From an uncultured delta proteobacterium (GTDB lineage Bacteria > Myxococcota_A > Polyangia > Haliangiales > Haliangiaceae), in contig CAWKDB010000010.1 in assembly GCA_963848295.1 (NCBI GenBank), positions 960,001 through 1,024,000 of the forward strand: a DNA stretch of 64,000 nt, in the 5' to 3' direction. The stretch's first letter is position 1, and the number at the start of each line of letters is the position of its first letter. Positions 3,243-7,526 of this stretch are shown in pieces. The notes below the pieces were generated by a model. It was not told the origin of the DNA, did not search any database, and saw only the letters and a program-made list of their open reading frames with translations. Both the position numbers and the translations under genes were made by a program.

Positions 3243-4793
3243 ATGCGCTCGTCGTTCGTCGTCGCGATCTGTCTGTGCTTCGCATGCTCGTCGAAGAAGT
3301 CTGCGGATGATCACGCCGCGGCGACCGGCGCACCGCCGATCGCGCCGGCGAAGCCAGTCGTGAAACAGCCGGTGCCGAAAACGCCGTTGCCTCCGCTCTC
3401 CGCGGACCCGGGTGGCGCGACCGGCAAGCCGGTGTGGACCACGGGGTTCGGCGGGCTCGGCATCGACGCGCCGCGCGGCATCGCGGTCGACGATGCGGGC
3501 AACTCGTACGTCGCCGGCTACTTCGAGGGATCGATCGACTTTGGCGGCGCGATCGGCAAGCGCACGTCGGCCGGCGGCTCCGATGCGTTCGTCGTCAAGC
3601 TCGATGCCAGCGGCAAGGTCGCCTGGGCTCAGACGTTCGGCGCCAAGCGCGACGACGCCGCGAACGCGATCGCGGTGCACGGCGACACCGTCGTCGTCGT
3701 CGGCAACTTTCTCGACGAGCTCAAGCTCGGCGACTTCGATAAGAAGGCGCGCTCCGGCTCCGGGTCGGGCGATCAAGCGAACATCGCGGAAGGCTCGGAC
3801 GATGTGTTCGTCGCAGCGTTCGGCACCGACGGCGCGCCGAAATGGTTGTGGACCCTCGGCGGCATCGACTCCGATGGTGCGAACGCAGTCGCATCGTCGC
3901 CCGATGGCGGCTGGGTGATCGGTGGCTCGTTCCGCGACAGCATCGTCGACACTGGCATCGCGCTCAAGGCGCGCGGCGGCACCGATGCGCTGCTCGCCAA
4001 GCTCGCGCCGAGCGGCGACCTCGAGTGGATCAAACAATTCGGCGGCACCGGCGACGACCAGATCTCCCACGTCGCGGTCGATGCTCAAGGCTCGATCTAC
4101 ATCCAGGGCGTGTTCAAGGACATCGCCGACTTCGGGGGCAAACCGCTCAAGGCGGCGAACGGCTCCGACACCGACGTCGTGCTCGCGAAGTACGACGTCA
4201 ACGGCGATCACGTGTGGTCGCAGCGCTTCGGCAACCCGTTCAACGACGTCGCCGGCGGCGTCGCCGTCGATCCGTCGGGCCACGTCACGATGGTCGGCTC
4301 GTTCGAGCGCAACGGCGGGCCGGTGTCGTTCGGCCCCGGAGATTCGCACGACTCGGCCGGCGAATCCGACATCTTCGTCGCGCACTTCACGACCGACGGC
4401 AAGCTCGAGTGGGCGCACACGTTCGGCTCTGATCGCGAAGACATCGGCTGGGGCGTCGCGGCCGACTCGTCGGGCAACATCGTGATGACCGGCTGGTTCC
4501 AGCGCACCGTCGATTTCGGCAAGGGCCCGATCGAGAGCAAAGGCAACAAGGACGTGTTCGCGCTCAAGCTCGATCCGAAGGGCGCGATCGTGTGGGTCGA
4601 CACGTGGGGCGACCACGACCACGATCAAGGCCGCGCCGTCGCGATCGACAAGACCGGCGCCGCGTACGTCACCGGGATCTACCGGTTCAAGCTCGCGCTC
4701 GTCGATCCGCCGCTCGAGTCGCATCGGCCGGCGTCCGGGGTCGAGGCGATGGCGCCCAAGCCCGATGCGTTCGTCGTCAAGCTCGCGCGCTGA
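3243..4793 (+). CDS. Lipoprotein with beta-propeller (SBBP-like) repeats
   Basis: Lipobox-like LCFAC; repeated units GIAVDxxGNxYVxGxF...DxFVxKLDxxGxxxWxxxFG. Confidence 0.85.
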   Translation: MRSSFVVAICLCFACSSKKSADDHAAATGAPPIAPAKPVVKQPVPKTPLPPLSADPGGATGKPVWTTGFGGLGIDAPRGIAVDDAGNSYVAGYFEGSIDFGGAIGKRTSAGGSDAFVVKLDASGKVAWAQTFGAKRDDAANAIAVHGDTVVVVGNFLDELKLGDFDKKARSGSGSGDQANIAEGSDDVFVAAFGTDGAPKWLWTLGGIDSDGANAVASSPDGGWVIGGSFRDSIVDTGIALKARGGTDALLAKLAPSGDLEWIKQFGGTGDDQISHVAVDAQGSIYIQGVFKDIADFGGKPLKAANGSDTDVVLAKYDVNGDHVWSQRFGNPFNDVAGGVAVDPSGHVTMVGSFERNGGPVSFGPGDSHDSAGESDIFVAHFTTDGKLEWAHTFGSDREDIGWGVAADSSGNIVMTGWFQRTVDFGKGPIESKGNKDVFALKLDPKGAIVWVDTWGDHDHDQGRAVAIDKTGAAYVTGIYRFKLALVDPPLESHRPASGVEAMAPKPDAFVVKLAR

Positions 4794-4901
4794 TCTCGTG
4801 ACAAAACGCCCGTAGCGGCGAAATAGCCGCATTCCCCACTTTTCATCGGTGGCGCGCGGTGCCAAAAGAAATGCGCTTCCACCTCATTTAGGAGATTTCA
4901 G

Positions 4902-5123
4902 ATGGCCAAAGCGAAAAAGGGTAAGGCGGCCGCGGGCCCCACGGAGATGCTACTCGTTGCCTCGAAGGTCAAGGCGGTGCTCAAGAGCGCCGGCTGTAAC
5001 ACCGCGGGCGACGCGCTCGACGGGCTGAACGGCTATGTCGGCTGGCTCGTGATGCAGGCCGCCAAGCGCGCCCACGAGAACGGCCGCAAGACCGTCCGCG
5101 CGCACGACTTCATGATCATGTAG
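4902..5123 (+). CDS. Bacterial histone-fold protein (single fold) with Lys/Ala-rich N-terminal tail
   Basis: LLVASKVKAVLK...GDALDGLN...AAKRAHENGRKTVRAHDF carries the histone L2/alpha3 signature RKTV-x-x-x-D; AGGAG Shine-Dalgarno at about 4890; terminator downstream. Confidence 0.9.
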   Translation: MAKAKKGKAAAGPTEMLLVASKVKAVLKSAGCNTAGDALDGLNGYVGWLVMQAAKRAHENGRKTVRAHDFMIM

Positions 5124-5158
5124 CTCGGGTCGCCGGGTTCCTGCCGATTCTGCGACGT

Positions 5159-5191
5159 AGACGGGCGCCTTCCGGGCGCCTGTTTTCGTTT
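5159..5191 (+). terminator. Intrinsic terminator after the histone gene
   Basis: Stem AGACGGGCGCC / GGCGCCTGTTT with a short loop, followed by a T-rich tract (TTTTCGTTT). Confidence 0.7.
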
Positions 5192-5210
5192 GGGGTTAAG
5201 ATTGTCAGAG

Positions 5211-7526
5211 GTGACGGCTGGGGTACCTATCTACCTGGTCTCGGCCTGCTCCTCTGCCGAGGAGTTTGTCGCGGCGTTTAGGCGTTACGCCGATCGCACC
5301 GGCGTGTTCGTTCCGATGGCGCAACCGCTGCCCGCGGGCAAGCGCGGGACGATCGCGCTGACCCTGATCGACGGTGGCGTGATGATCGACGGCGAGGCGG
5401 AGATCATCGCGTCCTCACCCAAGCCGTCGCCGCTGCACGGCCGACCCGGCATGACGGTGCGGTTTCTCGAGCCCGACGACGCGAGCAAAGCCACGCTCGG
5501 AGAGCTCGAGAAGTCGCGGCTCGCGATGCGCCCTGGTCCGCCGAACGCGACCGCGCGCCCCGCCGCGATCCCTTCTGGGCCGCGCCCGACCCCGCCCGCG
5601 CCGGCCGGACGAATCGACGCCGCGAACGCGCTCGCCGAATGCGTCGCGATCGGCGATGTCTCGACGCTGCGCGACATCGCCGACCCATCGGCTGCGGCGA
5701 AAGCAAAGTTCGTCGTCCCGTCGATCCCCGTGATGGGCGGCCGGACCAGGCCGCAGAGCACGGCGCCGCCGATCTCGACGTCGCGAACCGCGACGACGCT
5801 CGGCGTCGGGCCGTTGCAGAAGCCGCCCGAGGAGCCCGCCGTCGTCGTCGCCACCGCGACCCGCGATGACGCGACCCAGCCGATCGTGAGTCGTGGCGCA
5901 ACGCTATCCGAGCTCGTGACGACCGCGCGAGGCACCGGGCCCGAGCCCGCCGGACCGGCCGTTCGCCGCGCGACCGCCGAGGTACCGCGTCGGCCGACGC
6001 CACCCGCGCCGTTACCCGTGCCCCGCCCGCCTGCGCCGATCGCGTCGCCGATCGATACCGTCGAGGTCGACCTCGGCGAGCAAACCGATATGTCGCCGAT
6101 TCCCGACGCGGACCGCGGAGAGACCCGGACCGCGGTCGGCCCACCGCCGGTAGCGATCGACCCGCAAGTCGATCCGGAAGACGCTCCCACCGCGTCCCGG
6201 CCCGTGATCGATCCGGCCGATCCGAAAGTCGCCGAGCCATCGGTCGTGGTCGACATCTCCGCATCGCCATCCGGCGGCGCCGTCGGGCACGCCGAGCCTG
6301 CGATGCGCGCGTCCGAGATCATGGCGGCGATCCCGCACGGTGACTGGACGATGACGCCGGGCGACGTCGCGCCGACCGTGCTGCCACCGCCGGCGCCGCC
6401 TTCCGACAACTGGACGATGACGCGCGACGAAGGCGCACCGACGGGATGGTCGGCGGCGAGCCCGGTCGCTGCGCCGCCGCCGCCCCAACCGCCACCGATG
6501 CCAGCGCCGCGGCCGCCGATCGTGCCGGCGGCGCCGAAGACCGGAAATCCCGTGATGGCCGTCGCGAGCACGGAGCCGTTGTTCACCGACGGCAGCGAGG
6601 ACAAACCGACCATCGTCGAGCCGAAGATCGAGATCGATCCGACGTTGATGGAGCCGCTGCGCGAGATGCCGCCCGAGGACGACGCAGCCGCGCAGTTCGC
6701 GGTGCCACCGGTGCACGCGGCGCTCGGGTCGTTGCCAGCGCCGGCGATTCCCACGCCGCTACCGGGGATGATGACTGCCCCTCCGCCGGTCCCGCTGGAC
6801 GGTTACGCCCAGCCGATGGTGGCGACGCCCGGAGCGGCTTATCGCGACGATCGCGCGTCGTACCCCGGGCTCGACGCGATCGCCCCGCGGCACCGTCGGC
6901 GCGGGCTCGTGATCGCGCTCAGCGCCGCGTCCGCCGTGACGATCGGCGCGATCGCGGTGATCGCCGCGACGCGCGGCGGCGCGGCGACGAAGTCGAAGCC
7001 GATCGACGCTGCGGTGACGAGCCCGCCGATCGATGCCGCCCAGGTCGCGGTGGTCGTGGCGAAGGCGGACGCGGCGGTCGCGCCTCCGCCGACGGTGTGC
7101 AAGGTGATCATCGACACGACGCCGACCGACGCCGAGGTCGGCATCGATGGCGGTGCCGCGCTCGGCAAGTCGCCGGGGACGTTCGAGCTACCGTGCGGCG
7201 CCGAGGTCAAGCTGTCGATCAAGAAGGCGCGCTACTACGCGGCGACGAAAGCCGTGATGCCGACCTCGACGGGTGCGAAGGTCTCGGTCAGGCTCGCGCG
7301 CGCGACGTTCACGATCAGGGTGAGCTCGACGCCACCAGGCGCGACGATCACGGTCGGAGGACGGACGCTCGGGATCACGCCGACGATGATCAGGCTGCCG
7401 GCGTTCGAAGCCGCGGCGATCACACTGTCGAAGCCGGGCTACACCGCCGAGTCGGCGAGGTTCACGCCGAAAGCGAACAACGTCGCCTACCGCGTGACGC
7501 TCAGGCGGGTGCCTATGCTCCGCTGA
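5211..7526 (+). CDS. Membrane protein: N-terminal PilZ-like domain, long Pro-rich linker, TM helix, two PEGA-like domains
   Basis: N-terminus EFVAAFRRYADRTGVFVP...GMTVRF resembles myxobacterial PilZ-like domains; TM LVIALSAASAVTIGAIAVIAA; PEGA-like IDTTPTDAEV and VSSTPPGATITV. GTG start at 5211 chosen because TAAGAT lies upstream (ORF track starts at 5190). Confidence 0.7.
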   Translation: MTAGVPIYLVSACSSAEEFVAAFRRYADRTGVFVPMAQPLPAGKRGTIALTLIDGGVMIDGEAEIIASSPKPSPLHGRPGMTVRFLEPDDASKATLGELEKSRLAMRPGPPNATARPAAIPSGPRPTPPAPAGRIDAANALAECVAIGDVSTLRDIADPSAAAKAKFVVPSIPVMGGRTRPQSTAPPISTSRTATTLGVGPLQKPPEEPAVVVATATRDDATQPIVSRGATLSELVTTARGTGPEPAGPAVRRATAEVPRRPTPPAPLPVPRPPAPIASPIDTVEVDLGEQTDMSPIPDADRGETRTAVGPPPVAIDPQVDPEDAPTASRPVIDPADPKVAEPSVVVDISASPSGGAVGHAEPAMRASEIMAAIPHGDWTMTPGDVAPTVLPPPAPPSDNWTMTRDEGAPTGWSAASPVAAPPPPQPPPMPAPRPPIVPAAPKTGNPVMAVASTEPLFTDGSEDKPTIVEPKIEIDPTLMEPLREMPPEDDAAAQFAVPPVHAALGSLPAPAIPTPLPGMMTAPPPVPLDGYAQPMVATPGAAYRDDRASYPGLDAIAPRHRRRGLVIALSAASAVTIGAIAVIAATRGGAATKSKPIDAAVTSPPIDAAQVAVVVAKADAAVAPPPTVCKVIIDTTPTDAEVGIDGGAALGKSPGTFELPCGAEVKLSIKKARYYAATKAVMPTSTGAKVSVRLARATFTIRVSSTPPGATITVGGRTLGITPTMIRLPAFEAAAITLSKPGYTAESARFTPKANNVAYRVTLRRVPMLR

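Follow-up and report, generated by a model that had tools for sequence, protein, structure and literature searches.

Organization of the histone locus

The window analysed here, by which the whole stretch of 64,000 nucleotides is meant, comes from a soil myxobacterium, an uncultured member of the Haliangiaceae, and contains a 73-aa open reading frame that, as originally predicted, combines a lysine-rich N-terminal tail with an RKTVxxxD signature. The gene is stand-alone, as proposed, and looks monocistronic; it lies between same-strand flanking genes and has upstream signals and a hairpin of its own (Table 1). Both flanking genes were found at 29/29 genus loci, and the true start of the PEGA-domain gene is probably the GTG at 5211.

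Comparisons are based on 66 orthologue loci, comprising the source genome (G000), 28 of 61 genus relatives (the best-scoring 29 minus one unpublished genome) and 37/37 from other genera. The orthologue search used the histone core alone, because the tail was not to be selected for; it matched 104/120 family genomes, and 98 remain once six weak matches of the ZZ type are set aside. A script chose the tail starts at the 66 loci, applying a second rule to two of them, and none of the conclusions depends on the two unpublished genomes (G077, G082) counted in the family tallies.

Table 1. Features of the histone locus and of the candidate partner genes (positions refer to the window unless a genome and contig are given)
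Feature	Position	Strand	Basis or remark
Histone gene, 73 aa, predicted face-to-face (alpha3) type	4902..5123	+	ORF, phmmer, fold, four-copy model
N-terminal tail (residues 1-14; net charge +4), with a conserved head and a linker that varies	4902..4943	+	
Histone fold, residues 15-70	4944..5111	+	HLp alignment and conservation
C-terminal extension, three residues past the end of HLp	5112..5120	+	HLp alignment
Promoter-like element TTTTCA ... GGTGCCAAAAG	4840..4868	+	GGTGTAAAAG at the same place in relatives
Shine-Dalgarno sequence AGGAG	4890..4894	+	7 nt upstream of ATG; purine-rich site in 64/66 orthologue loci
Terminator-like hairpin and T-rich tail	5159..5191	+	Folding versus shuffles
Upstream neighbour: beta-propeller (SBBP) protein	3243..4793	+	Syntenic; link to histone not implied
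Downstream neighbour: PEGA-domain protein, weak PilZ-like N-terminus	5190..7526	+	Syntenic; link to histone not implied
SET-domain protein, post-SET cysteines, acidic segment	G000:C2:492087-492605 (= L196:1351-1869)	-	
Second histone: 184-aa ZZ-finger histone	G000:C11:618448-619002 (= L002:1480-2034)	-	

The 108 nt upstream of the histone gene have a GC content of 54%, compared with 69% for the window, in agreement with the GC-poorer upstream region noted at the outset. The element listed in Table 1 for this region would act as a promoter; GTAAAA is found 32-46 nt upstream of the start at 34/66 orthologue loci (21/29 in the genus), with 0.0007 occurrences expected per 75 nt, and a sigma-70 scan of the locus called no promoter. 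The AGGAG Shine-Dalgarno sequence is indeed present, but its supposed rarity in the window does not hold, as AGGAG followed by ATG after 4 to 10 nt occurs eight times against 5.45 by chance, a count reached in 25/100 shuffles. Since the pattern does not exceed chance in the window, the site is informative only through its conservation. The expected terminator was recovered by folding: the hairpin at 5159-5185, with an interrupted run of T behind it, reaches -22.6 kcal/mol (z -3.58) and is equalled in 0/200 shuffles, even though a simple terminator scan did not call it, and a GGGCGCC-type hairpin followed by TTT occurs at 27/66 orthologue loci when a strict pattern is applied. In the 11 RNA runs screened, 5-10% of the gene's words were present, and in four of them short contigs from relatives (<90% alike, depth 2-3) overlap the gene core in a way that makes neither level nor strand readable. 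Two loci, L034 (G071) and L067 (G053), have an intact histone ORF while the Shine-Dalgarno sequence and the promoter-like element are missing, and the L034 tail contains a short repeat; early decay or an assembly error are both possible explanations.

Histone fold and structural class

Neither of the two collections used as identifiers recognises the protein: a Pfam search gave nothing at E<=1, and the NCBIfam archaeal histone model NF043032 scored E 0.011 with 16.1 bits, far below its cut-off of 50, so that the archaeal nucleosomal (HMf) class does not apply. Despite this silence, the bacterial histone fold of the original prediction was upheld by phmmer against the PDB, which returned HLp of Leptospira perolatii at E 2.3e-11, HBb/Bd0055 at E 1.8e-6 and HTkC at E 0.0025. 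The same three structures head the Foldseek results, where the first row (HLp) has E 0.021 and none lies at E<=0.001. The monomer model is mediocre (pTM 0.45) and places helices at residues 14-29, 35-59 and 67-70, i.e., a three-helix histone fold with a truncated alpha3, and the alignment to HLp is gapless.

Residues that contact DNA and hold the tetramer together are listed for HLp in PMC12701072. With an offset of seven, the DNA-binding positions correspond to A20, S21, K22, K24, K28, T34, G36 and T64, whereas HLp R49, N53, R55, D62 and F63 correspond to R56, N60, R62, D69 and F70, of which R62 and D69 form the clamp. R56, N60, R62, K63, T64, S21 and K22 are invariant in 66/66 orthologues, and D69 is found in 65/66, the remaining one being cut by the contig end; the RxTxxxxD motif and the alpha1 lysine K22 are thus conserved. 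Bacterial dimer histones are described as lacking the R and N tetramer residues (PMC11390915). Because both are present here, and indeed invariant, the protein does not fit the bacterial dimer (HBb) class and points to the face-to-face (FtF) type, which replaces the Bd0055-like dimer first proposed. Judged from its sequence, the 73-aa protein is a single-fold bacterial FtF histone, closest to Leptospira HLp.

Modelling, suggested in the original prediction as a way of telling dimers from face-to-face tetramers, gave a partial answer. A four-copy model scored 0.86, compared with 0.06 for the best of three controls, although this score covers one copy, is possibly dominated by the dimer and does not extend to ring closure. 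The score mark is reached by 20/30 solved homo-pairs and 1/23 single chains in a calibration made with two copies only. At least 94% of contacts are shared between runs, with a partner pLDDT of at least 82. The modelled dimers touch each other via helix 3, loop 2 and the last part of helix 2, and the second (dimer-dimer) interface, formed by residues 52, 55-56, 59-60, 66, 68-69 and 71-72, lies where it is expected for the FtF type. The model's pass may stem from likeness to, or memory of, the solved HLp and HTkC structures.

The N-terminal tail

In the model, pLDDT falls below 50 at residues 1-5 and 7-9 of the tail, which is absent from any confident interface. The survey of tail conservation proposed originally shows that a basic tail is a real feature of the family, as it is found in 66/66 orthologues with a length of 8-29 residues and 4-14 K/R. 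Its composition over these orthologues is 35% K, 29% A, 13% G, 7% P and 2% R, no acidic residue occurs in 60/66, and the S/T count ranges from 0 to 7. Since tail length and linker vary while basicity stays, it is the charge that is kept and not the sequence of the linker. Position-specific conservation is confined to a head of 5-6 residues, which reads MAK in 62/66 and MAKAK in 58/66 orthologues and does not continue along the whole tail. The codons of this head vary synonymously, and it is therefore conserved as protein.

The resemblance to eukaryotic tails claimed at the outset stands for charge and disorder but not for sequence, because the tail is rich in K, A, G and P and contains little R, S or T. 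Similarly, the threonine following the tail is present in this protein, but a Thr adjoins the core in just 22/66 orthologues, and phosphorylation of Thr14 as a conserved feature was rejected on this count. The genome is kinase-rich, as had been stated, with 153 Pkinase matches, 150 of 234 candidates having been scored.

Distribution, gene loss and the search for HU

An FtF copy was not found in 22/120 family genomes, with an alignment-based search included. In four of the five genus genomes tested, the flanking genes are adjacent without a histone between them; these clean deletions show that some lineages can do without the histone. The search for the downstream neighbour gave no match in G014, G005, G019 and G027; G034 and G038 have weak matches only to this neighbour and no histone at those loci.

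Most genus genomes have two (unclassified) PF00216 matches, and in two other genera a further, divergent member is present. In the four genus genomes G000, G060, G062 and G050, all PF00216 matches are IHF-alpha or IHF-beta and HU was not found, with G000 being 85% complete. One of these genomes, G050 (L313, L332, L335; 93% complete), has neither this histone nor a recognisable HU, which indicates that this genus has other proteins able to package its DNA. A separate observation concerns a 184-aa ORF on the minus strand of contig C10 in G000, whose N-terminus is K/A/P-rich and H1-like, making it a candidate nucleoid protein or SET substrate.

Outside the order, the same core occurs with 71-80% identity in records labelled Elusimicrobiota (15/80 loci), Planctomycetota (2) and Bdellovibrionales (2), and most of these copies have a short MAKK start. 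A tree of 60 cores (59 columns) leaves 35/57 inner branches open and, being poorly resolved, shows neither transfer nor its direction. Other histones were also seen. One viral contig codes for a histone of 64 aa that has the FtF residues, a short tail and 48% identity in the core (L298:2977-3171, plus strand). Within the family, some genomes have an additional single-fold histone from a different clade (loci L072-L074 in G018, G002 and G020); two of these possess the FtF residues and end directly after the RD clamp. Fused doublets of the histone clade, 114-133 aa long and with two matched stretches (P0121, P0123-P0126, P0128, P0129 and others), are numerous among the best-matching 50%-identity representatives.

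Proposed function and alternative readings

The protein is likely to be a sequence-independent FtF nucleoid protein whose tetramer wraps DNA and whose tails serve as electrostatic arms. By comparison with HLp, which is reported to wrap DNA (PMC12701072), and with HTkC, the tetramer would wrap about 60 bp round its rim without sequence specificity. The four unstructured K/A-rich tails would raise DNA affinity and help to compact or bridge DNA, by analogy with HupB and HupS, and in a genus where only IHF-alpha and IHF-beta were found the histone probably provides bulk non-specific packaging. Any acetylation of the tail would most likely be of the general, charge-neutralising kind of bacterial nucleoid proteins rather than a code that is read, and would be expected to weaken DNA binding, as in HupS. 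The C-terminal extension, the mediocre monomer model and the state of G050 count against this reading as a whole. Moreover, a role in charge alone would not call for a head as strictly conserved as this one (MAKAK in 58/66 orthologues, with synonymous variation), which counts against the view of the tails as arms.

A methylation code dedicated to the tail may exist but is unlikely. It would make the tail head a modification site for the order's own SET enzyme, with methylation tuning the wrapping or recruiting partners. H3 starts with A-R-T-K, and the histone head after removal of Met, A-K-A-K-K, comes close to it. The contrast between a head conserved as protein and a variable linker favours such a site, as does the finding that MAKAK begins only one of the 3021 SD-anchored ORFs of the source genome. 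G000 encodes one SET protein, one HDAC-family protein and three sirtuins; the latter two types are common, being found in 9/14 and 10/14 of the controls. The SET protein matches in 113/120 family genomes, and SET matches at E<1e-50 occur in 7/301 phylum genomes, all within the order. Its 45 residues before the NHS motif have a median charge of -10 (21/21 loci), compared with -3 in 20 SET proteins picked from genomes without a histone match, charge being read off a profile alignment, and its best solved relatives are the ASH1L/KMT2 histone methyltransferases. These features make it the best candidate for a putative writer of the tail. Precedents are reported in which a chlamydial SET protein methylates Hc1 and a Methanosarcina SET protein methylates MC1-alpha (PMC3980110).

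Several points argue against methylation of the tail. The SET gene is unlinked to the histone gene and is kept in 20/22 family genomes in which no histone was found, including all four clean deletions; the 21 acidic SET proteins share one lineage and hence count as one event; and other K-rich proteins of the genome are available as substrates. SET domains also occur in 98/301 phylum genomes, many without a histone match. In family f18, SET is found in 14/23 genomes and the histone in 0/23, in family f10 the histone in 3/3 and SET in 0/3, and among the other lineages with the closest histone cores SET is present in just 8/23 genomes. SET and the histone therefore do not go together across the phylum. 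A wider version of this reading, in which a tetrameric histone took the place of HU in the Haliangiales, an order-specific SET enzyme with an acidic cleft methylates its invariant A-K-A-K-K head, and resident sirtuins or the HDAC deacylate it, likewise appears improbable; it would amount to a writer-substrate pair for a true histone tail in bacteria that live freely, with an evolution apart from that of eukaryotes and Asgard archaea.

Quite unlikely, too, is that in spite of R56 and N60 the electrostatic-arm tetramer gives way to a dimer that bends DNA like HBb, or to a weak tetramer, the arginine-carboxylate bridge being lost through the C-terminal extension. Two to five extra C-terminal residues are present in 65/66 orthologues, the 66th being cut at its contig end. 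The chain therefore does not end directly after the RD clamp, where the terminal carboxylate would pair with Arg; such an end is seen in HTkC, D4GZE0 and HLp but is not part of the family's stated definition. According to the HTkC preprint, the R45A variant is a dimer and a C-terminal extension is predicted to disrupt the bridge (10.64898/2025.12.06.692711). Other points in favour of a dimer are the RKT motif shared with bacterial dimers and the replacement of HLp T61 by His in 64/66 orthologues. Against it stand the R and N residues, absent from bacterial dimers, the far stronger match to HLp than to HBb, and the confident second interface of the model, within which residues 71-72 of the extension themselves fall.

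That the tail stems from misannotation or is a by-product, with translation starting at Met16 or the head only easing initiation, is very unlikely. Codons ending in A are over-represented among the first five (AAA makes up 53/130 Lys codons, against 27/275 in the core), tails are described as easily gained from AT-rich upstream DNA (Hocher and Warnecke 2024, PMC10919886), and the longer database form of HLp is reported to have been an artefact (PMC12701072). Nevertheless, a Shine-Dalgarno sequence precedes Met1 at 64/66 loci, the sole GGAG near Met16 abuts the ATG, and Met16 is another residue in 24/66 orthologues, in seven of them a non-start residue, both counts having been made by eye. The internal start named in the original prediction as the case that would remove the tail thus fails, and tails of up to 29 residues, 14 of them basic, go beyond any initiation effect. 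On this sequence evidence, the tail is genuinely translated.

Finally, a reading of the free tail by the ZZ histone or by a stand-alone ZZ-like finger, as eukaryotic ZZ domains do on H3, would suit the presence of the ZZ histone in G000, its match in 119/120 family genomes (six weak only) and the conserved tail head, but is highly improbable, since the ZZ domain carries a net positive charge (+1 to +3 in 12/12 loci), is kept in 22/22 genomes without the tailed histone, matches in only 3/23 genomes from the other lineages whose cores are closest, and has pocket residues that Schwab et al. report as not conserved, judging reading unlikely (PMC11390915). The candidate SET and ZZ partners are thus both retained after histone loss.

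The ZZ histone gene overlaps the start of a serine-hydrolase gene, a neighbour found at 18/20 genus loci. Just upstream of it in G000 lies a long ORF resembling a group II intron reverse transcriptase by eye (C11:619000-621030, minus strand). A sirtuin gene is 3 kb away in G000 but accompanies 0/40 ZZ loci of relatives, so a link between the two was rejected. The stand-alone finger, a 59-aa protein (G000:C10:517837-518016 = L114:3338-3517, minus strand), has the Cys/His pattern of the ZZ histone finger at 43% identity, with a weak zf-MYND match (E 0.0025) and an LSD1-type finger match just over the cut-off. A second weak ZZ match is seen in many genus genomes.

Comparison with known systems

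The gene adds a new member to the known bacterial FtF histones with tails and, as a histone, to a family whose descriptions date from 2023-2025. Schwab et al. 2024 (PMC11390915) report that most FtF histones of bacteria, Myxococcota among them, carry a basic, H3-like tail, which takes away the "undescribed" character of the chromatin layer first envisaged, and the tail of this very family may already be displayed in their supplementary figures. What is new here is that no HU was found in four genus genomes, together with the clean deletions, the C-terminal extension and the order's acidic SET methyltransferase. The function of bacterial histone tails is left open in papers on these histones, and the family therefore makes a test case: one member is in culture, the tail is long and its head conserved, the gene has been lost naturally in some genomes, and a candidate enzyme can be named. 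No report of tail modification, or of SET action on a bacterium's own histone, was found in the literature covered, most subscription journals lying outside it. Should SET mark the tail, no earlier writer acting on a histone of the same bacterium would be known from the literature searched; should it not, the family still bears on how FtF histones tolerate a C-terminal extension and on DNA packing without HU.

Tailed Asgard archaeal histones are likewise prokaryotic with basic N-terminal tails, but they are of the nucleosomal type, and modifications, writers and erasers are shown for them (10.64898/2026.07.02.735847), whereas those considered here are candidates. A functional comparison can be drawn with HupS of Streptomyces and HupB of mycobacteria, nucleoid proteins with a K/A-rich disordered tail; in HupS, acetylation is reported to lower DNA binding and to be reversed by a sirtuin (PMC11229371). 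These proteins have the HU fold and a C-terminal, much longer tail, and are not homologous. HBb/Bd0055 (PDB 8CMP, 8FVX) shares the alpha3-truncated single fold, the RKTV motif and residues past the RD clamp, but lacks the R and N tetramer residues as well as the tail and is the weaker match.

The named close relatives mostly belong to the Kofleriaceae, where the host would accordingly be placed. Within this family of the NCBI taxonomy, Haliangium ochraceum has the same pair of histone types, listed in the data of Schwab et al. as the FtF protein D0LYZ1 and the ZZ protein D0LYE7; the former is labelled Face-to-face there, with a mean pLDDT of 76.3 (PMC11390915), and would be the orthologue of the 73-aa histone. 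The closest known system remains HLp (PDB 9QT0-9QT2; PMC12701072), the best sequence match, a single fold that shares the tetramer residues, the RD clamp and the DNA-contact residues and also has a disordered, albeit short, N-terminus. Its host is reported to be without HU (PMC12701072), as appears to hold for the four genomes of this genus. Differences lie in the purely basic 14-residue tail, as opposed to seven unresolved residues in HLp, the C-terminal extension, the His at the position of T61, the presence of a second (ZZ) histone and a neighbourhood without SMC/MAP. In addition, the histone gene of L. interrogans is reported to have resisted deletion (PMC10627809), whereas the gene described here has been lost in some relatives.
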